Positions 1 through 29,115 of a stretch of 32,000 bases of DNA are shown here, one piece after another. The stretch's first letter is position 1; each line of letters starts with the position of its first letter. The DNA is taken from the NCBI GenBank assembly GCA_964547015.1, contig CAZJKT010000010.1, forward strand, positions 6,694 through 38,693, written 5' to 3'. The position numbers and the translations under genes were made by a program. Source of the DNA: an uncultured archaeon (GTDB taxonomy: Archaea > Aenigmatarchaeota > Aenigmatarchaeia > QMZS01). The notes beneath the pieces were generated by a model, which saw only the letters and a program-made list of their open reading frames with translations, was not told the origin of the DNA and did not search any database.

Positions 1-3000
1 ACCGGGGACTATCCCGGAAGTGAGATAGTTGTAGGCAGCAATGACCAAAAGATATATATTCTTAACAGCACAGGCTCTCCGATAGGGGATTTTCTTGCAA
101 ATAATTTCATAAATGCTGTGGGTATTGGCGGCTTGGCAGAAAGCCCGGGTCTTGAAGCCGCTGCAGGCGGGGCAGATGGAACGGTATATATATTCAATTT
201 TGACTATTTTCCAACAAACCTTTCAATAGATGTCGGGAATAACGGAAATAGGGAATGGGTTTCGGGCCATGAAAAACTGAGAGGCTCTGAGGTTGCATCA
301 GGGGACAATATAACTGATGCAATAAACACCTATCTTGAGGCATGCTCTCCGGATGCATCAGGCAACTGCCAGATCCCTCTTGCATTTGAATCAAAGTTTA
401 AGGGAATGCTCAATATAGGCAGCCTATCGGTCTCGTACCTTTACAATGTTTCCGGGCTTTTCCAAAAAACACCTGCTTTTAGCTGGTCAAGGATAAGCAA
501 TATATCCGCGGGGGAGAGTGTAGGGTATTCTGTATACAATATTACTTTTTCCGGAATCCCTTCAGAAAATTTATCGGTATATTATCTGTTCGTCAACCAA
601 AGCGCTACGGCATGCGACTTTAACTTTGCAAAAAGAAGCGTTGCGGATATTGGGGGCTCAAAAGTGTGCGATATAACTTTAGAGCCTTTGTTTTTTGAGG
701 CGGGCGTTTCCATAAACTCAAGCGAGAGCTCTTTTTTGTTTTGGGATGACACAATGGAGTCGCAAGTCGCGATTCATTTGGATAACCTGACCGATTATTT
801 TACTGAATACGGCGAGCCTGACAGGTACACTCGGCAGGCAAATCTGTCCCTATATACGGATAACGGCTCTTTTTTGTGGGCAAGCGCTGATTGGGTGGTA
901 AATGACTCCCAAATTAAGGGTGAGGAATTTTTGAGGGTGTTTGACGGAGGAGAATGCGATATCACCCCGCCAGACGCTCAGGATGACTGCGATTCAGAAG
1001 CCCCGGAGTTTACCTACCAAAAAACCTGCAGCCAGTACAGCTTCTTTTCCTGCAAAAAGGAGACTGGGGACGGGATGTATTTCAGGTGGGCCCAGTCAAG
1101 CCTGTCTTCAGACGCGCCAACCTTATTTCAGGCAGGCGGATCATATAATTTAAGGCCGGAGCTATCCAATCTCTCGGCAATTCCAAATTCTTCCATTTGG
1201 GGGACCAATATCACTTTTTCGGCAGATTTATATGATGAAGAGTCTGATGGCGTCAATGCAACCCTGTGGATATACCATTCAGGAAATTGGCATAATGAAT
1301 CTCAAAAATCGGTTTTGGGCTCGATTTTGCAGTTTAATGTTACTTCAGCTAAGGAATGGGTAGGCGTTGCGCAGTATCTTTTTGAGTATTATGACTACAA
1401 CCTGACAGGCCTTTCCCAGATTTTCCACCTGCCACAAAACACCACAGCTAAAAACTTTACAATTGAAAAGCATAATTCAGAGGTAATCTATAGCCCTTTT
1501 TTGGGGACATTTGGAAATGCAACCTCAGTCTATCTCAATAACACAGCTTATCTTTCGGCATACATTAACGACACTGATTTGGGGGAGCCTGCAGTGGGGG
1601 CATCCTGCGCGCTATGGGTAGGGGAAATTTTGTCGGGAACAAACCTGACAAATTCAACAGGGCACTGCAATATTGTATTTTTACCAAACCAGTCCTATAG
1701 TGTCGGAGAAAAGAAATGGAAAATAGGCATTCTTGGGGATGGGGCATACAGCAACTCAAACTCAACAGAGCTTGACATTGAAATTCGCGGTGAATTGCAA
1801 ATATCCATTATAGGTGAGGAAGATATGGAATTTTATCGGGGAATGCCAAAAGAGTTTGGGGCGCAGCTTCAGGATGTTTACGGACGAACTCCAAACCTAA
1901 GCAATTACAACTGCTCTTTTAACCTTTCAGGCTCAGGAATTAATTCAAATATAGGCTCAAATATGACTTTGGAAGGAGCTTGCGCTATTTATTATGCGGC
2001 GGGATGCGGAGGGGTGTGCGCCTCGGTCGGTGAAAAGAACCTGTCAGTTCAGGCCTCCCGAATCGGGGCTGATGATTACTATGATATTTCAGGATTTTCG
2101 GCTCAGGATATGGTTCAGGCGGCCCTCAAAGATTCCCTTGTTGTGTCTGTCCATGAACCCGAAGACTTGCTTTATTACAAAGGCAGCCAAATCCCCCTCA
2201 ATGCAACTGCCGCCGACTCCTGCTCGGAAGTGGGCGATGTTATTACAGAATGGAGCCTTATTAACAAAAATTTTATCAATGTTACGGTAACAGACATTAG
2301 CGGGTCGGATAGGGAGGATTATCCGATAATTTTAGGCGCAAGCTTATTTTCCTCGGAGCAGTTTGATATCGGCTCATGGATTATAAACAACACGAAAATT
2401 ACCCTCCGGGGAGAGGAAATCCCATTTGAGATATACCCGTGGTCTGATGAGGGAGAATCTTTGCTAAACAATTCGCAGGAGAATATGTCTGAATATTCAA
2501 AAATAGTTTTTTTGGCGGATCTGCCCGCATCATCAAGCAAAACTTTTGAGATTGATTTGAGATATTACAATCCGGAATTCTACACCTACAATGTCCCTTA
2601 CAGCCTGAGGAATGCAGGATTTGGCTCAGGGAATTTTTCCTATTGGACGGAGTCTGCCTGCTCGAGTTCGGGATGCGGAGTTGAGGTTTCCGGTTCAGGG
2701 GGAATGCGCTTTGCAAACCTTTCTGCAGGAAACGGGCTGACTTCAATATTTCAGGGAATTCCAAACCACGCCGCCCATACAGGAGAGATTCAGATAAAAT
2801 ATAAGGCATGGGGGGAATTTGGGCATTCGCTCTACCCGGGAGAGCTGTATATCCAATCCGGGGATTATGTCTGCAACCTTACGCCAAGCATTCTGGAAAA
2901 TGCTGACGGCGAGGGATATGTTTCTCAGCCATCAAACTGGACTGTTGCGAACTGCGCAGATATTTCGCTCCGATCCGCCCAGAATATTTCAATTATCCTA

Positions 3001-6000
3001 AAAGACATGGGGGACGGCGGGGCTGACCCTTCAAACACAAATGCATTGATAGATTATATTTGCTTTGCGGATGCTTTTGGGGAATGCGTCAGTTTCCACT
3101 CGGGCCTGCCCGATTCCGTTGAAGTATCCTTAAAAAAGAGCCTTGGGAGCGCTGAGGAATACTTAATCGGAGGTTTTGAGGAGGTTGGCAGAAGGAAAGC
3201 TGTTGCTATTGCATCCAAGGATTATTACACTTCCGGATACAATTCTGCATATTTCAATATATCCGGCTTTGCAAAAATTGGAAATTTTACTGTAGATTCG
3301 GAATACTGCTCAAGATGGGGGGATGAGCCTTTTAGGCATATTTGCATGAGCGATGCGCACATTTCCCTTGAGGCTGAAGTTTTGGACAACTTCACGCTAT
3401 CCGGAATATATAATTACAGCGTGGGCTTTTATAATGAGTCCGGATTAATGGGCTCAAACTATACCGGTGTTGGGGGCATAGCCGAATATTTTACTTCAGT
3501 CGGAAATGAAGAAAATTATACCTATACTGCCAATATATCTTCAATGCCGGGATTGTTTTATGAGGCAGTTGAGCCAAAAGGACTGTCGCTTGATATAATA
3601 ATTGATAATGGAACAACTGCAGGGAGTATTGAGCTGAACAATACTTATGAAACCGCTTCCGGAGTTGCCCTAGATAATAACCATACTTTTATGGTTTACC
3701 TGAACCTGACAAATACAGGAAGCAGCGGAATGTATGCAATAAATATTTCGTCAACAGAGTCTGAGGGAATAATTATACCAAAGTCTTATTGCAGTCCCCT
3801 GCCTTCAGGAAACTCCTGCGGAAGTGAAATAAATATTACCGTTACCGTGGATGCGGATGCAACCCAACAGGTGATTGTTTTCAATGCTTCATGGAGAAAC
3901 GGGGATGGGAGCAACAGCTCTACTCATTCAAACCTGACAATCAGCATTCCTGAAAATAAAAGGGCGGTATTTTATGAAGAGAGCCTTTACCTGTCAGCCC
4001 CGATAACAGCCATTCGCTCAGCCAATTTTACCGTTGTAAATTACGGCAATGTCAACCTGACAGGTGTATATTATAATATATCCGGGACCGATGCCGGGGA
4101 GGTTGCCGATTGGAGCGCTTTTATGGAAAATGCCTCGAATATTGCAAAGAAAGGCGAGAGGGAGAATTATATTCGGTTTGAAGTTCCCGGAAATGACACA
4201 CTAATAGGTGTTTATTTTTTCAATATTACTGCGACGATTCCGGACTGTTCCGTGGATTGCTCGGTGACACTGCCTTTCACCTTAAATGTCACCTCGCTTG
4301 ACTGGTATATTACCCCGGACACAAATCTCTCTCGGGTTGTCGGCCTAAAAGAAGAGCTAAAAAAGCTTGGGGAGTTTAATTTGGTAAATGTAGCCCCCGG
4401 AACTTATAATTATAATGTCACTGTATCGCCTCAGGCGGGTACCTCGGCTGAATTTTTGGTTCTTAACAGGGCATCCGGACAAAAAAATATTTCGTTCTCA
4501 CTGCAAAACCAGGCTTCAATGACAATAAGCGTATATTATAATACCAGCGTTTCTCCGGAAAGCCTTGGCTCATATATCGGGAAGCACAATTACACAATAA
4601 GGGCGCGCAACCTCAATGAGAGCGCGGTTCCGCAATATGTTGACCTTCCGGTTTATTTTGAGATAATCAATTTTACTGTAGATATAATTTCGCCTGCAGA
4701 GGCTGAACCCATAGGGGGGGTTTATGAAAATGATACCTTAGAGATTATTGTTGAGGCGATTTCTGGAAACTCGCCGGTTTCTGAAGGTATGGCTTGGTCG
4801 GCTGAAGTGGGGGGAGTTGTTTGCTTAAATGAAGGGCAGGCCCAATATAATGCTACGAGCGAAAAATGGCTTATTGAATGTTTTGCCCCGGAAATTCCAT
4901 CAAACAGGATAAATAACAGCCTTACGGTTACAGGGATTTATTCCCGTGAAGGAGGAGAGGTTGAGCTCTCCGATATTGAAGAAAATGCGGTGATATATGA
5001 AGATGTGTTGCCGCCTTGGTTTAGCAGAATTGCCTCAAGCCATATCAATTACTTTTCAGATGCCCCGACGCAATCCTTTAGGGTGAATGTTACCGACAAC
5101 CTTAATATTTCCTCGGTCTGGGCAGAAATCTCGGCTCCAAGCGGCCCGAATATTTCTTTGGGTGAGGGAAACTTCACAAAAAGCCCGATAAGCGACCCGG
5201 ATTTCGAAAGCTATGAGTATATCTTTTCTTTTGCAAACCCTAATGAGGTTGGGGACTATGATATTTTTGTCTATGCAAATGATACCGGAGGCAGGGTTGG
5301 AATTGCCGGGGGGTGGTTTGAGGTATATCGCCCGATTACTGCCGCAGGAAACCTGTCAAACCCTAAAGGGGAGGGGATAAATGCGACTTTCAGGTTTTAT
5401 AGGGCAGGCCACAACAGGACTGACTTGTATTTTATGGGAAGCTACTCTGTTTTTGGCGGAGATTATAGCTGGGCGCTCCACAAAAGGAAATATGATGTGG
5501 TCGCGGAAATATTCGGCCACGAGATTGCGCTTTTGGATGCGGATTTCAATATAGAGCCAAATACCACAGATTCTCCGTTTAAGTTTGATAATTTCCCACA
5601 TAAAAACTCAGAGGATATGTCAAATATCCTTTTGCCTGATACTGCTAACCGGCAGAGCATTTTGCTTGCGGTTGTTGTTGAGTCCGCCCTAAACCTTTCG
5701 GGAGCTGAATTTAGCATAAATTATACAGAGGCTTTGGGGCAGGGGAGCTTTTCTGAAAACCTCCTTAAGGCGTTTTACTGCCAAAACTGGAATTACACAA
5801 CACGGTCTTGCTCTGAGGGGGAATTTAGCTATCTTGAAGGGGGATATGCGCCTGAAATTATCTCAAATATTTTTAATTTTTCCACAAATCACCTGTCAGC
5901 CTATGCTGTTGCGGAAAGCTCTTACCCTGATAAGTGGGGGGTTTCGCCTCCTGCCCCGGACCCCGGGACTTCCCCTGCGCCGGGAGGCTCTGCCCCAAGG

Positions 6001-7923
6001 GACACTTCTTCAGGCATTAGCGAGCCGAGGCCTTTTTGCGGCAACGGAATATGCGAAATAGGGGAGAATGCGGATAATTGCCCTCAGGACTGCTCAAGGG
6101 ACTTTCCGCTGGAAGTTGACACAAACCTTGAGGATGCGCGGATTTTCCTTGGGGAATCAAAAGAATACTGGATATCATTAGGCAACCTCCATGAGAGAGA
6201 TATAAATGCCACGATTTCATTGAGCGACAATATGGCGGGATTTATTTCAATGCAAGAAAGCCGGGTTCAGGTTCCAAAGGGAGGGCGCTTTAGGCTCAAC
6301 CTTTCGGTAACAGCCCCTCTAGATCAGGCGGTGGGGACATATGGAGGCTATGTAATTTTGGAGGCGGAAGGGAAGAAAAAATCCCTTCCAATAACACTAA
6401 GGCTTCTTGAAAGCGCAAAATTGATTTTAAAGATGGATGTTGAAATTCCCTCCCAGAAGATAAATGCCGGAAAGAACTTGAGTTTTGTGGTGAAGCTTGT
6501 GAATTTGGGTGACCGGGGGAATTTTGAGCTGAATATTGATTATCTTGTTATACGCCAGTCCGACAACAAGATTGTGAAGCAGTTCAACACTTCAGCTGAG
6601 CTTGAGTCGGCCGCTGTATTGCGGGAAACTCTTGAGCTTGGCCAATTAGAGACGGGATATTATAACCTTGAAGTATGGGCTAATTATAATGATAAGAGTA
6701 TTATGGATGTGGCAAGTTTTGAGATAGTCAAGCCATTATTCGAGTCCCCGCTTACGGTGGCTCTGCTTCTTTTGGCCCTTGCAATGGCGGTCCTTGTAGG
6801 GGGAACTTATATTTGGAACTATTACCGCGCATGGAAAAAGGAAAAGGAAAAGCAGGAGAGGTACTTATATCCTTTGGATTATAATGCAGTGCCAAAATCA
6901 GGGTTTAGGATTGGCAAATTTGCCGGTAGGGACAATGTGTTTTATTATGACCCGAGGGACCTCTCAACACATATTATTGCCGCAGGGGCGACAGGTTCAG
7001 GCAAATCGGTAACTGCCTCGGTTTTTGCCGAAGAGGCCCTTGACCGAAAGCTGCCGGTGATTGTATTTGACCCTACAGCCCAGTGGACAGGGTTTGTAAA
7101 GCCGCTCAAAGACAAAAACCTTCTGGCGCGATACAGGGCCTTTGGCATGAATGATTATGATATTAAGTCCTATCCGGGCCTAATCTATGACATAGACGAC
7201 CCTAACTTTAAGCTTGATGTTAAGAAGTTTATAAATCCGGGAGAGATTACCGTTTTCTGCCTTAACCGCCTAAAGCCGGGAGAATATGATATTGCAGTGA
7301 AAAACATAATCTCCACACTATTTTCGGAGAACTGGGAGGAGAGTACGGAACTCAAGGCAATATTTGTCTTTGACGAGGTGCACAGGCTCCTTGAGAAGTA
7401 TGGGGGTAGCGGAGGGTATACTGCGCTTGAGAAGGCCGCAAGGGAGTTTAGAAAGTGGGGGCTAGGTGTAATAATGTGCTCTCAGGTTCTTGCGGATTTC
7501 AAGGAAGCGATTGCAGGAAATGTATTGACTGAAGTCCAGCTCAACACAAAGTCTCTTGCGGATATTTCAAAAGTAAAGACAAAGTACGGGGAGAGGTATG
7601 CGGAAAGGATTACAAGAATGGGTGTGGGCGCGGGACTGTTCCAGCACCCGAAGTACAATTCAGGAAAGCCGTTTTTTGTAGAATTTAGGCCCACAAAGCA
7701 CGACCCGCATAAAATCACCGACCAGGAGCTCACGCTTTACAAGGAATATACTGAGAGGCTTGATAAGATTGGGGAAAAGATTGCCCAAATAAAATCCGGA
7801 GGGGGTTATGTTGAGAATTACGAGATTGACTATAAGCTTGCCTTAAATAAGCTTAAGAGAGGCAACTTCAGAATGTCTGAGATTTATATTTCCTCCCTTG
7901 AAAAGGCATTGGAGAGAGCATGA
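1..7923 (+). CDS. Giant cell-surface protein (5'-partial; continues upstream of the window) with one TM helix and a C-terminal cytoplasmic HerA/FtsK-superfamily (DUF87-type) P-loop ATPase domain
   Basis: Frame 1 has no stop from nt 1 up to the listed GTG at 118. The extra residues TGDYPGSEIVVGSNDQKIYILNSTGSPIGDF look like an FG-GAP/VCBS propeller blade, so the true start lies upstream. The ORF is uninterrupted to TGA at 7921-7923. N-x-S/T sequons are very dense. CARDB-like strands are present (MVYLNLTNTGSSGMYAINIS, FVVKLVNLGDRGNFELNIDY). A Pro-rich linker is followed by CGNGICEIGENADNCPQDC, then a TM helix at 6748-6816 and ATPase motifs. Confidence 0.9.
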   Translation, partial: TGDYPGSEIVVGSNDQKIYILNSTGSPIGDFLANNFINAVGIGGLAESPGLEAAAGGADGTVYIFNFDYFPTNLSIDVGNNGNREWVSGHEKLRGSEVASGDNITDAINTYLEACSPDASGNCQIPLAFESKFKGMLNIGSLSVSYLYNVSGLFQKTPAFSWSRISNISAGESVGYSVYNITFSGIPSENLSVYYLFVNQSATACDFNFAKRSVADIGGSKVCDITLEPLFFEAGVSINSSESSFLFWDDTMESQVAIHLDNLTDYFTEYGEPDRYTRQANLSLYTDNGSFLWASADWVVNDSQIKGEEFLRVFDGGECDITPPDAQDDCDSEAPEFTYQKTCSQYSFFSCKKETGDGMYFRWAQSSLSSDAPTLFQAGGSYNLRPELSNLSAIPNSSIWGTNITFSADLYDEESDGVNATLWIYHSGNWHNESQKSVLGSILQFNVTSAKEWVGVAQYLFEYYDYNLTGLSQIFHLPQNTTAKNFTIEKHNSEVIYSPFLGTFGNATSVYLNNTAYLSAYINDTDLGEPAVGASCALWVGEILSGTNLTNSTGHCNIVFLPNQSYSVGEKKWKIGILGDGAYSNSNSTELDIEIRGELQISIIGEEDMEFYRGMPKEFGAQLQDVYGRTPNLSNYNCSFNLSGSGINSNIGSNMTLEGACAIYYAAGCGGVCASVGEKNLSVQASRIGADDYYDISGFSAQDMVQAALKDSLVVSVHEPEDLLYYKGSQIPLNATAADSCSEVGDVITEWSLINKNFINVTVTDISGSDREDYPIILGASLFSSEQFDIGSWIINNTKITLRGEEIPFEIYPWSDEGESLLNNSQENMSEYSKIVFLADLPASSSKTFEIDLRYYNPEFYTYNVPYSLRNAGFGSGNFSYWTESACSSSGCGVEVSGSGGMRFANLSAGNGLTSIFQGIPNHAAHTGEIQIKYKAWGEFGHSLYPGELYIQSGDYVCNLTPSILENADGEGYVSQPSNWTVANCADISLRSAQNISIILKDMGDGGADPSNTNALIDYICFADAFGECVSFHSGLPDSVEVSLKKSLGSAEEYLIGGFEEVGRRKAVAIASKDYYTSGYNSAYFNISGFAKIGNFTVDSEYCSRWGDEPFRHICMSDAHISLEAEVLDNFTLSGIYNYSVGFYNESGLMGSNYTGVGGIAEYFTSVGNEENYTYTANISSMPGLFYEAVEPKGLSLDIIIDNGTTAGSIELNNTYETASGVALDNNHTFMVYLNLTNTGSSGMYAINISSTESEGIIIPKSYCSPLPSGNSCGSEINITVTVDADATQQVIVFNASWRNGDGSNSSTHSNLTISIPENKRAVFYEESLYLSAPITAIRSANFTVVNYGNVNLTGVYYNISGTDAGEVADWSAFMENASNIAKKGERENYIRFEVPGNDTLIGVYFFNITATIPDCSVDCSVTLPFTLNVTSLDWYITPDTNLSRVVGLKEELKKLGEFNLVNVAPGTYNYNVTVSPQAGTSAEFLVLNRASGQKNISFSLQNQASMTISVYYNTSVSPESLGSYIGKHNYTIRARNLNESAVPQYVDLPVYFEIINFTVDIISPAEAEPIGGVYENDTLEIIVEAISGNSPVSEGMAWSAEVGGVVCLNEGQAQYNATSEKWLIECFAPEIPSNRINNSLTVTGIYSREGGEVELSDIEENAVIYEDVLPPWFSRIASSHINYFSDAPTQSFRVNVTDNLNISSVWAEISAPSGPNISLGEGNFTKSPISDPDFESYEYIFSFANPNEVGDYDIFVYANDTGGRVGIAGGWFEVYRPITAAGNLSNPKGEGINATFRFYRAGHNRTDLYFMGSYSVFGGDYSWALHKRKYDVVAEIFGHEIALLDADFNIEPNTTDSPFKFDNFPHKNSEDMSNILLPDTANRQSILLAVVVESALNLSGAEFSINYTEALGQGSFSENLLKAFYCQNWNYTTRSCSEGEFSYLEGGYAPEIISNIFNFSTNHLSAYAVAESSYPDKWGVSPPAPDPGTSPAPGGSAPRDTSSGISEPRPFCGNGICEIGENADNCPQDCSRDFPLEVDTNLEDARIFLGESKEYWISLGNLHERDINATISLSDNMAGFISMQESRVQVPKGGRFRLNLSVTAPLDQAVGTYGGYVILEAEGKKKSLPITLRLLESAKLILKMDVEIPSQKINAGKNLSFVVKLVNLGDRGNFELNIDYLVIRQSDNKIVKQFNTSAELESAAVLRETLELGQLETGYYNLEVWANYNDKSIMDVASFEIVKPLFESPLTVALLLLALAMAVLVGGTYIWNYYRAWKKEKEKQERYLYPLDYNAVPKSGFRIGKFAGRDNVFYYDPRDLSTHIIAAGATGSGKSVTASVFAEEALDRKLPVIVFDPTAQWTGFVKPLKDKNLLARYRAFGMNDYDIKSYPGLIYDIDDPNFKLDVKKFINPGEITVFCLNRLKPGEYDIAVKNIISTLFSENWEESTELKAIFVFDEVHRLLEKYGGSGGYTALEKAAREFRKWGLGVIMCSQVLADFKEAIAGNVLTEVQLNTKSLADISKVKTKYGERYAERITRMGVGAGLFQHPKYNSGKPFFVEFRPTKHDPHKITDQELTLYKEYTERLDKIGEKIAQIKSGGGYVENYEIDYKLALNKLKRGNFRMSEIYISSLEKALERA
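6748..6816 (+). other. Single predicted transmembrane helix of the giant protein (PLTVALLLLALAMAVLVGGTYIW)
   Basis: A 23-residue hydrophobic stretch is followed by the basic RAWKKEKEKQER. By the positive-inside rule the downstream ATPase domain sits in the cytoplasm. Confidence 0.75.
6940..7710 (+). other. HerA/FtsK-like ATPase domain inside the giant ORF
   Basis: Walker A is GATGSGKS (6985-7008) and is followed by PVIVFDPTAQW. Walker B is AIFVFDEVH (about 7357-7383). AREFRKWGLGVIMCSQVLADF resembles the GRKyG...sQrP motif of HerA/DUF87 ATPases. Motif order and spacing match that family. Confidence 0.7.
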
Positions 7924-27793: not shown

Positions 27794-28041
27794 GCCCCTG
27801 TAGTCTAGCTCGGTCCAGGATATCGCCCTTTCGAGCCGGCATTTCTTTTAAAAAGAGATCCGGGCACTCCCAAGAAACAAGTTTCAAGGGAAGGGAAAGG
27901 TTTGAGGCTTTCGAGCCGATGACAAGAAGACAGGCGGAGACCCGGGTGAAGACTTTTCTTGCGAAGAAAAGTCCTCAACGTCAAAAGAAGCAGATTCCTG
28001 CTTCGCAGAAGGAATAGGGTATTCAAATCCCGGCAGGGGCA
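27794..28041 (+). tRNA. tRNA-Glu(UUC) gene interrupted by three modelled introns (anticodon loop 80 nt, variable region 18 nt, T-loop 75 nt)
   Basis: The acceptor stem GCCCCTG (27794-27800) pairs with CAGGGGC (28034-28040), followed by discriminator A. The exon model is 27794-27827, 27908-27923, 27942-27947 and 28023-28041. It gives a 75-nt cloverleaf with D stem GTCT/GGAT, anticodon loop CTTTCGA and T arm CCGGG-TTCAAAT-CCCGG. Caveat: there is one C:C mismatch (30:40) in the anticodon stem. Confidence 0.7.
27945..28008 (+). repeat. Conserved intron module, copy 1 (inside the T-loop intron of tRNA-Glu)
   Basis: GGTGAAGACTTTTCTTGCGAAGAAAAGTCCTCAACGTCAAAAGAAGCAGATTCCTGCTTCGCAG shares identical blocks of 12, 18 and 17 nt with 28991-29056. 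Confidence 0.9.
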
Positions 28042-28080: not shown

Positions 28081-28272
28081 ATGGACGGAACAGTAAAGTT
28101 CTTCAATGCAATGAAGAATTTCGGATTTATCAGCGGCTCGGACGGAAAGGATTACTTTGTCCATTCAAGCGCGCTGAAAGAGGGAACTCGGCTTAATGAA
28201 GGCGATAAGGTGACCTTTGAGCCCACTCAGGGCGACAAAGGGATTAAGGCCGAAAAAGTCGAGAAAGTTTAG
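28081..28272 (+). CDS. csp: Cold-shock domain protein (CspA family)
   Basis: GTVKFFNAMKNFGFI is RNP1-like and DYFVHSS is RNP2-like. The 63-aa size fits. Confidence 0.92.
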   Translation: MDGTVKFFNAMKNFGFISGSDGKDYFVHSSALKEGTRLNEGDKVTFEPTQGDKGIKAEKVEKV

Positions 28273-28380: not shown

Positions 28381-28722
28381 ATGGCTGAAGAATGTTTGGG
28401 CGGCGGTTTAGATGGATTGGATGTCTTCAATTATATGAATGCTTTTTGGGAAGTTTTTGATAATTACCATAGATTGGGCAAAACTCGCGAAAGAATTGCC
28501 CTAGAACTTTATCATGCGGGCGCTCCGATAACTTCTGTCTATCTCCAAGGTAAGTTGGATATAATGCAGAGCATCTCGCAGACCAATCTGGATATATTGT
28601 TGCGTTCCGGATTAATAACCCGGGAAAAAATCCTGAAACTCGCGCCTATGAATATAGCCTTCTTCCGGAAGCTAGGCAAATCCTTGATGGCTATTTTGCG
28701 CTTGCAGAGTCCAGCCGAGTAA
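28381..28722 (+). CDS. Hypothetical protein (113 aa)
   Basis: An ATG-initiated ORF in an otherwise empty gap, with no motif I recognise. Confidence 0.5.
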   Translation: MAEECLGGGLDGLDVFNYMNAFWEVFDNYHRLGKTRERIALELYHAGAPITSVYLQGKLDIMQSISQTNLDILLRSGLITREKILKLAPMNIAFFRKLGKSLMAILRLQSPAE

Positions 28723-28800
28723 AAATCTCGGAAATGGGCGAGCTCAGGCGCGCGGTTGTTGATTAATTTACCTTTTGCAAACTAAATTATGCCGAGGTGG

Positions 28801-29115
28801 CGGAGCGGTCTATCTATACCTCCCTAAAAAGAGGATGGGACCATACGCGGCTGGCTTGAGGTCATCCCTTTTCTTGAAAGAAAAGGTCTGACAACCCCAA
28901 AAGAACAGATTCGCATATCATGTTTGCTTCGCAAACGGGGCGATTCTATTGGGGGTAAAACAGGCAACCAGTTTCCCGCAAGGGAGCGCAGGTGAAGACT
29001 TTCTTTCCCGAAAGAAAGTCCTCAACGTCAAAGAAAGGGAGATTCCTGCTTCGCAGGTATATTGCCCTTTTAGTTGGGAAGAAGTCCTCTGCGAATTCAA
29101 ATCCTGCCCTCGGCG
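28801..29115 (+). tRNA. tRNA-Ser(UGA) gene interrupted by three modelled introns (D-loop about 32 nt, anticodon loop 96 nt, T-loop 103 nt)
   Basis: The acceptor stem GCCGAGG pairs with CCTCGGC, followed by discriminator G. The exon model is 28801-28822, 28855-28870, 28967-28993 and 29097-29115. It gives an 84-nt class-II tRNA with D arm GCG-GAGCGGTCTAA-CGC. The anticodon arm is GCTGG-CTTGAGA-CCAGT, with TGA at 28867-28869. The long variable arm is TTCCCGCAAGGGAGC and the T arm is GCAGG-TTCAAAT-CCTGC. Confidence 0.8.
28991..29056 (+). repeat. Conserved intron module, copy 2 (inside the T-loop intron of tRNA-Ser)
   Basis: GGTGAAGACTTTCTTTCCCGAAAGAAAGTCCTCAACGTCAAAGAAAGGGAGATTCCTGCTTCGCAG. See copy 1 at 27945-28008. 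Confidence 0.9.

Follow-up and report, generated by a model that had tools for sequence, protein, structure and literature searches.

A probable three-intron tRNA-Ser(UGA) gene in a relative of the Aenigmatarchaeota, and the structured intron family to which two of its introns belong

Families of transposed transfer RNA (tRNA) introns in the Thermoproteales were reportedly described by Fujishima et al. in 2010, as reviews summarize (PMC4090602, PMC4033280). In these archaea a single tRNA gene can hold up to three introns, and Pyrobaculum calidifontis carries 71 introns in 46 tRNA genes (PMC8450103, PMC4033280); similar introns form families whose members occupy different sites (PMC4090602, PMC4033280). 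Non-canonical tRNA introns, together with special loops in the splicing endonuclease EndA, are known from ARMAN-1/2 (Micrarchaeota) and other DPANN archaea (PMC3239211, PMC5829648), and Kaneta et al. took the incomplete tRNA sets of new DPANN genomes to point to unidentified disrupted tRNA genes (PMC5829648). Among the Asgard archaea, the Atabeyarchaeia and Freyarchaeia have introns in 92–95% of their tRNA genes (PMC11291895). The full-text literature that we searched held no description of tRNA introns in the Aenigmatarchaeota (Aenigmarchaeota). Here we describe a tRNA-Ser(UGA) gene that is split into four exons by three introns in a 32,000-nucleotide stretch of archaeal DNA (the window), and we trace the relatives of its introns through other genomes and metagenomes.

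Each of these systems resembles the locus in part. As in the Thermoproteales genes (PMC8450103, PMC4033280), there are at most three introns per gene, they interrupt the D-loop, the anticodon loop and the T-loop, their junctions are relaxed, and ordinary finders miss them. Unlike those genes, the present one belongs to a DPANN lineage, and its introns and their relatives are long (32–154 nt across the 32 introns that we modelled, mostly 75–150 nt), most of them with one conserved structured module. Near-identical introns at different sites and in different genes, here in the window and in two related contigs (L001 and L037), recall the transposed introns of the Thermoproteales; absent from what the reviews describe there are a 5′ module that stays constant while the 3′ end is specific to the site, a further hairpin with covariation, a mirror-image purine tract and inserts nested within the module. 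Disrupted tRNA genes with relaxed motifs are a feature shared with ARMAN-1/2 and other DPANN archaea, and fit the suspicion of Kaneta et al. As in the Asgard lineages, nearly all tRNA genes are interrupted, often several times and at non-canonical sites (here 18 of 18), but the superphylum differs and a shared intron module was not reported there (PMC11291895). The three-intron gene is thus of a known kind in a new lineage and by itself adds just that lineage, a DPANN relative of the Aenigmatarchaeota. What seems to be new is the intron family, in which a constant structured module is combined with a 3′ end fitted to the site and with a mirror tract.

The gene spans 325 nt on the plus strand and does not encode CCA. 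Exons have a G+C content of 64–67%, whereas introns, at 43–47%, resemble the genome (45%). The parts are as follows, A and B denoting the two intron families discussed below.

28791–29115 (+): split tRNA-Ser(UGA) gene, four exons and three introns
28791–28812 (+): exon 1; acceptor 5′ strand, D-stem 5′ strand and D-loop to about position 21; identical in L001
28813–28844 (+): intron 1, 32 nt, in the D-loop at about 21/22 (our own numbering); family module absent
28845–28860 (+): exon 2; D-stem 3′ strand, G26, anticodon-stem 5′ strand and loop through G37; anticodon TGA
28861–28966 (+): intron 2, 106 nt, at the canonical 37/38 site; family A
28967–28992 (+): exon 3; A38, anticodon-stem 3′ strand, 15-nt variable arm and T-stem 5′ strand through G53
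28993–29095 (+): intron 3, 103 nt, in the T-loop at 53/54; family B
29096–29115 (+): exon 4; T-loop from T54, T-stem 3′ strand, acceptor 3′ strand and discriminator G73

Removal of the introns restores a canonical cloverleaf, and ARAGORN calls the spliced 84-nt product tRNA-Ser(tga). By its 15-nt variable arm with a 4-bp stem, its GCG/CGC D stem, G73 and the anticodon TGA, the product is a class II tRNA-Ser. A first-pass annotation of this DNA had read the locus as a tRNA-Ser(UGA) gene split by introns in the D-loop, anticodon loop and T-loop, and this interpretation is upheld by the call on the spliced sequence, by the junction motifs and by two orthologues (L001 and L048). The spliced sequence that it had proposed matches ours letter for letter when 28791–28812, 28845–28860, 28967–28993 and 29097–29115 are joined. 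The termini GCCGAGG...CCTCGGC-G were found as claimed, and so were the 3-bp D stem, the 15-nt variable arm TTCCCGCAAGGGAGC, G73 and the T-loop TTCAAAT. Its coordinates needed adjustment. The gene, given as 28801–29115 (315 nt), ends where stated but starts 10 nt earlier; intron 1, given as 28823–28854, is shifted by 10 nt in the same way; and intron 2, given as 28871–28966 (96 nt), keeps its end but starts at 28861. For intron 3, the proposed 28994–29096 and our 28993–29095, one nucleotide apart, yield the same product because a T flanks both ends, and we prefer the latter because the bulge-helix-bulge rule favors it.

The annotation had also warned that standard finders may miss or mis-call such genes. 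Indeed, both ARAGORN (with or without its intron mode) and Rfam are blind to the unspliced locus. Neither ARAGORN nor an Rfam scan at gathering thresholds found any RNA gene in the 32-kb window, and Rfam returned no tRNA, C/D or intron family at the locus, whether at gathering thresholds or at E ≤ 10.

To draw the splice junctions we applied the accepted geometry of the archaeal splicing motif, in which each strand contributes four helix bases followed by a 3-nt bulge that is cut after its second base. With this geometry the bulge-helix-bulge motif, which had been named as a check on the gene, can be drawn at all three junctions, in each case with a central helix paired at four of four positions and two 3-nt bulges (arrows mark the cuts).

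28807–28810 and 28839–28842 (+): intron 1 junction, central helix GGTC with GACC; bulges TA↓T and AT↓A
Flanking helices of the intron 1 junction (+): inner helix of 4 bp, CTAT/ATGG plus CCTC/GAGG; outer helix 0 bp, the D stem lying beyond a 4-nt asymmetry
28855–28858 and 28961–28964 (+): intron 2 junction, central helix CTTG with CAGG (one G·U pair); bulges AG↓G and CA↓A
Flanking helices of the intron 2 junction (+): outer helix formed by the anticodon stem, 5–6 bp; contiguous inner helix 1 bp
28987–28990 and 29090–29093 (+): intron 3 junction, central helix CGCA with TGCG; bulges GG↓T and AA↓T
Flanking helices of the intron 3 junction (+): inner helix of 2 contiguous bp (6 with an A·C mismatch, GAAGAC/GTCCTC); outer helix 1 bp

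The 5′ site of intron 2 adjoins a hairpin (GTCA..TGAC) inside a multibranch loop, and the inner-helix strand GAAGAC of intron 3 can pair either with the nearby GTCCTC (29018–29023) or with a distal GTCCTC. The strict hBHBh′ form occurs at none of the three junctions; all are of the relaxed HBh′/hBH types, for which the first-pass annotation had allowed.

A close relative provides the first independent view of the gene. The 22-mer of exon 1 has a single match among 185,579 species genomes, on contig JBNGEE010000036.1 of a metagenome-assembled genome of Candidatus Aenigmatarchaeota (L001). L001 has the same four exons in the same order, identical to those of the window at 84 of 84 positions, whereas its introns, of 92, 97 and 149 nt, depart from those of the window (32, 106 and 103 nt) both in length and in family. 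The contig is syntenic with 23.7–30.7 kb of the window at a DNA identity of 66–84% (75–84% in the genes adjoining the tRNAs), and its DUF134 protein is 93% identical to that of the window. At about 82–84% identity, the chance that all 159 exon positions of this gene and of the tRNA-Glu gene described below would stay unchanged is about 10^-12 to 10^-14.

A second orthologue lies on a metagenome contig (L048), where ARAGORN in intron mode, unaided, detects a tRNA-Ser(UGA) whose one intron, of 75 nt, lies at 37/38. No intron breaks the D-arm GGAGTGGTTAACGCG or the T-arm GCAGGTTCGAGTCCTGC of this gene; both align with the spliced junctions predicted for the window, and the anticodon stem shows a compensatory change from G27·U43 to C–G. 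Because the D- and T-arms of this orthologue are contiguous, two of the three window junctions are confirmed by sequence comparison with a gene that either never had or has lost the corresponding introns. Among the orthologues the exons are thus conserved and the introns free to vary, those of L001 being different and two of them missing from L048.

The L048 T-arm also bears on whether the precursor might be spliced at other registers, giving a different mature sequence. In the T-loop, a TGAA/TTCA helix paired at four of four positions, with the T-stem as a 5-bp outer helix, can be drawn in every family-B T-loop intron at 53/54, and the boundaries of intron 3 are ambiguous by one T. The T-loop resulting from that register would, however, read TGAAGAT, without T54-Ψ55-C56, and thus be non-functional; it conflicts with the form to be expected of the mature tRNA, which the uninterrupted T-arm of L048 establishes, and ARAGORN accepts the products as we have drawn them. 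We rejected this T-loop register and consider splicing at other registers in general to be highly improbable.

The introns themselves lead to further genes. A metagenome scan with the 20-nt core of the module shared by introns 2 and 3 returned 51 loci, about 15 of them genuine, and each genuine copy sits within a different split tRNA gene; about 35 matches were discarded from their context as chance occurrences of the 20-mer. The same scan of viral contigs gave one chance match, without the hairpin. We modelled 17 split tRNA genes with 32 introns (five Ser, four Glu, four Ala, and Arg, Lys, Trp and Val). ARAGORN recognizes every one of the 17 spliced products as a tRNA with a sensible anticodon, whereas it calls none of the unspliced genes except the L048 tRNA-Ser in intron mode, and the modelled tRNA-Ala genes carry G3:U70, as read from their sequences. 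Counting one further gene identified by eye in L007, every one of the 18 tRNA genes on the window and the related contigs is interrupted. Over about 144 kb, comprising the window, L001 and 16 related loci, ARAGORN in default mode (no intron search) calls no tRNA at all. The “missing” tRNAs of such genomes are thereby explained, and estimates of genome completeness and inferences on codon usage need special handling in this lineage.

The central helix is paired at four of four positions in 25 of the 32 introns and at three of four in the other 7, against 2.6% and 14% for displaced boundaries in the same genes, a count somewhat inflated by intron boundaries that were drawn by eye in the comparison set and partly guided by the motif. 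The excess far exceeds what this freedom allows. It comprises 14 different exon tetramers, each matched by the 3′ end of its own intron.

Against this background, we weighed the possibility that 28791–29115 is a dead tRNA-Ser gene, in which three insertions of a repeat element are never removed while another gene serves to read the serine UCA codon. Two of the three inserts do come from a repeat family that is present in many places, and the argument for splicing is one from sequence, seen within a 32-kb window of the genome. Yet the exons are identical to those of L001 at every position while the flanking genes are only 75–84% identical and the inserts differ. Moreover, each insert ends in four bases complementary to the exon just upstream, as do 25 of 32 related inserts (2.6% by chance), and the 18 interrupted tRNA genes on these contigs cannot all be dead. 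A dead gene is therefore very unlikely. An intact tRNA-Ser, which the first-pass annotation had named as a sign that this copy is a pseudogene, was not found by ARAGORN within the 32-kb window.

Since the module is repeated and nearly identical between loci, and such repeats can mislead assemblers, the gene could in principle also be an artefact, a chimeric contig built from mis-joined intron modules. This would have to have happened with the same four-exon order in the independent assembly L001 and with an analogous architecture in about 15 independent metagenome contigs, and the exon order always yields a correct cloverleaf. We give it next to no credence.

We conclude that 28791–29115 is, with a probability of roughly nine in ten, a functional, spliced three-intron class II tRNA-Ser(UGA) gene. 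Several points weigh against this conclusion, besides the by-eye boundaries and the alternative T-loop register (TGAA/TTCA) of intron 3 mentioned above. None of the three motifs is of the strict hBHBh′ form: introns 1 and 3 are without an outer helix, and at intron 2 the inner helix is replaced by the multibranch loop. Splicing therefore depends on an endonuclease of relaxed specificity, the gene for which is not in the window, nor is that for the RtcB-type ligase; relaxed motifs require an (αβ)2, an ε2 or a loop-bearing (L3) DPANN endonuclease (PMC5829648). In folding predictions, the precursor constrained to the acceptor, D and anticodon stems plus the three central helices reaches -112.1 kcal/mol, whereas the unconstrained minimum is -121.4 kcal/mol, so that the predicted minimum-free-energy fold of the whole precursor differs from the splicing-competent one. 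An intact tRNA-Ser(UGA) paralogue may exist outside the 32-kb window, and the evidence for splicing is throughout of a comparative, sequence-based kind.

The surroundings of the gene place its lineage. Neighboring genes in the window are archaeal (PTH2, DUF134, Sua5/YrdC), many open reading frames (ORFs) are without a Pfam match, and the closest homologues of the DUF134 protein belong to named Aenigmatarchaeota. By these sequence affinities the lineage is DPANN, a relative of the Aenigmatarchaeota, and not Thermoproteales. Apart from L001, the homologues of the DUF134 protein are at most 64% identical, lie in a different operon (ArsP/Nitro_FeMo-Co) and have no tRNA-like sequence nearby.

In a splicing-competent gene, the order of events would follow the archaeal pathway. 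The gene would be transcribed as a pre-tRNA of about 325 nt, in which the last four exon bases before the 2-base overhang would pair with four bases near the intron 3′ end to form the central helix. EndA, the broad-specificity archaeal splicing endonuclease, would cut after the second base of each bulge. An RtcB-type ligase would then join the four exons into the 84-nt tRNA, to which CCA would be added, and would probably circularize the introns. From the layout of the copies, the constant 5′ hairpin appears to offer a ready inner helix beside the 5′ bulge in every copy, and just the 3′-terminal ~6 nt of the intron would need to be tailored to the insertion site. This combination of a constant hairpin with a short site-specific end would allow one element to occupy D-, anticodon and T-loops. 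It amounts to a testable design rule for the spread of introns: a constant 5′ hairpin abutting the cut, plus a 4-nt site-specific 3′ complement.

Introns 2 and 3 belong to a structured intron family that is apparently undescribed. The first 53 nt are common to intron 3 of the window and to the 37/38 and T-loop introns of L001, at 93–100% identity. Over a 53-nt stretch the window intron at 53/54 is 98% identical to the L001 intron at 37/38, and 47–53 nt at 98–100% identity link the window T-loop intron, the L001 37/38 intron and a tRNA-Lys intron of L037. Window intron 2 has homologues in the L001 D-loop intron (z = 11) and the 37/38 intron of L048. Given these different homologies, the same sites hold different family members in two close relatives. 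A covariance model built on the module (R1) scores 61–78 bits in 18 family-B matches, representing 15 distinct copies, in Ser, Glu, Arg, Ala, Lys, Trp and Val genes and in a truncated gene in L044. The matched modules lie in the D-loop, at 37/38, and in the T-loop at 53/54, 54/55 and 59/60, and most of the 32 modelled introns, in D-loop, 37/38 and T-loop sites, carry the module. R1 also matches family-A copies over its full length at 15–35 bits (20.5 bits, E about 0.008, for window intron 2), and families A and B therefore form one superfamily. Closely similar introns thus occur in different tRNA species and positions, as in a mobile intron family, and the members have evidently spread, by movement or copying, from site to site and from gene to gene. 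Candidate copying routes include gene conversion between introns, reverse splicing followed by reverse transcription, and recombination. With the same tRNA-Ser carrying one or three introns in three relatives, and different family members at the same sites, the gene offers a snapshot of intron turnover. Snapshots of intron gain and transposition are what reviewers of the field have wished for (PMC4033280).

The module comprises ~56 nt at the intron 5′ end and begins with the first or second intron base, directly past the 5′ cut. Its elements in the window are these.

28862–28917 (+): family-A module in intron 2; hairpin CCCTTTTCTT/AAGAAAAGG, linker and mirror purine tract AAAAGAA (28899–28905)
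28993–29048 (+): family-B module in intron 3, R1 78.1 bits; P1 hairpin of 28994–29006 with 29011–29023, linker AACGTC
29030–29036 (+): family-B mirror purine tract in intron 3, AAAGAAA
29045–29057 (+): second hairpin in intron 3, CCTGC-TTC-GCAGG

The first hairpin has 12–13 bp, of which 12 are 98.9% paired across 15 copies, with double changes at three pairs. The second hairpin, at intron position about 50–54, keeps its apex GC-UUC-GC while its stems covary freely. The pyrimidine arm of the first hairpin has the form C-T(n1)-C-T(n2) and is followed, after a linker of 6–12 nt, by a purine tract A(m1)-G-A(m2). Across the copies these run lengths match: m1 equals n1 in 22 of 22 copies and m2 equals n2 in 18 of 22, over 12 run-length combinations with n1 from 2 to 5. 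In an anchored permutation test across the run-length combinations, in which the run lengths of window intron 2 were set by eye after mis-parsing, this gives p < 5 × 10^-5; a free-offset test of mirror against direct repeats is uninformative in A-rich tracts such as these. The matching run lengths mean that the tract complements the pyrimidine arm without reversal and so mirrors the purine arm. This pattern cannot be produced by antiparallel pairing, nor by direct or inverted duplication.

As a sequence pattern, the mirror rule fits a purine-motif triple helix in the sense strand, a classical pyrimidine-motif helix (U·A-U, C+·G-C) in the antisense strand, and an H-DNA-type mirror repeat in the duplex. 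Purine-motif triplexes are poorly tolerated with RNA strands, and a role at the DNA level or in antisense is therefore as likely as one in the intron RNA. A more far-reaching proposal would be that introns 2 and 3 represent a mobile structured element that colonized essentially all tRNA genes of the lineage, and that its hairpin and mirror tract fold into an intramolecular triplex or H-DNA needed for presenting the 5′ splice site or for the recombination that copies the element. This is conceivable but doubtful. A triple helix, if true, would be an unusual structural element for an intron, and the covariation of the mirror repeat points there; the full-text literature that we searched held nothing relevant on tRNA introns with a triple helix.

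Other identities for the introns were considered and set aside. Self-splicing group I or group II introns, whose ribozyme core takes up hundreds of nucleotides, are excluded by the lengths of just 32–106 nt and by the lack of any Rfam match even at E ≤ 10. A C/D box small RNA is known from the tRNA-Trp intron of euryarchaea, box C being RUGAUGA and box D CUGA with guide sequences; on reading the introns we found no box C, and there is no C/D family match within the gene. An Rfam match of intron 2 to the ciliate telomerase RNA (28862–28942; 24.4 bits against a gathering score of 52, E = 0.33) arises from the hairpin followed by GUCUGACAACCCCAAAA, a chance match to CAACCCCAAAA, and was judged a chance resemblance.

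Module variants also differ between tRNA-Ala(GGC) genes with identical exons. In L021 and L028, orthologous T-loop introns carry TTTTCTT/AAGAAAA/AAAAGAA with the loop GCA and TTTCTTT/AAAGAAA/AAAGAAA with the loop CCCG, respectively, and the tail behind the purine tract differs along with the loop, GC being replaced by GGG. The sequence difference suggests replacement of the whole module by gene conversion, and the concerted change possibly reflects a contact between loop and tail.

Outside the tRNA-Ser gene, a BLAST search of its introns against the window revealed a copy of the 5′ part of intron 3 at 27968–28008, and thereby a second split gene that standard finders do not see.

27794–28041 (+): tRNA-Glu(UUC) gene with two introns, 750 nt upstream of the tRNA-Ser gene
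27794–27833, 27932–27946 and 28022–28041 (+): exons of tRNA-Glu(UUC), identical in L001 at 75 of 75 positions
27834–27931 (+): 37/38 intron of tRNA-Glu(UUC), 98 nt
27947–28021 (+): T-loop 53/54 intron of tRNA-Glu(UUC), 75 nt, with a family-B module at 27947–28001
28762–28770 (+): candidate archaeal TATA element ATTAATTTA of the tRNA-Ser gene, an A/T-rich box at -29 to -21 picked out by eye, with a putative promoter role

The sequence TTAT stands immediately 5′ of +1 at the tRNA-Ser gene. When the 50 nt upstream of the 17 split tRNA genes (window, L001 and L007–L051) are compared, 14 have TTAT abutting the first tRNA base, and an A/T-rich box is present near -25. From this upstream comparison, the two elements probably represent the tRNA promoter and start context of the lineage.

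Between the two split tRNA genes lies a gene for a 63-aa cold-shock-domain protein (28081–28272, plus strand; Pfam CSD, E = 5 × 10^-19), and this arrangement with the split tRNAs is kept in L001. A 113-aa ORF at 28381–28722 of the window is absent from L001. A further ORF, of 2601 aa (118–7923, plus strand), gives as its sole Pfam signal a HerA/DUF87-type ATPase segment near residues 2264–2359, and six of nine other long window ORFs scanned have no Pfam match.

Smaller elements accompany the introns in related contigs. Three introns carry homologous two-hairpin inserts of 46–48 nt (CCT-hairpin-GGCC-hairpin-AGG), nested at exactly one and the same position of the module hairpin.

L001, about 1641–1686 (-): nested two-hairpin insert
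L040, about 1131–1177 (+): nested two-hairpin insert
L013, about 5936–5983 (-): nested two-hairpin insert

We rejected a reading of these inserts as introns within introns, as no bulge-helix-bulge register common to the three cases was found; the insert may be a second small element that targets the first. Another recurrent element, GGCGCCGTYCGA...ACGAGCG, occurs in both introns of a tRNA-Thr(UGU)-like gene (L007, 6753–7045, plus strand), in intron 2 of the L007 tRNA-Arg, and, in both L021 and L028, downstream of tRNA-Ala. The L028 copy precedes a stretch, CCCACCGGGTCCA, that resembles a tRNA 3′ end and could be a split or alternative 3′ exon.

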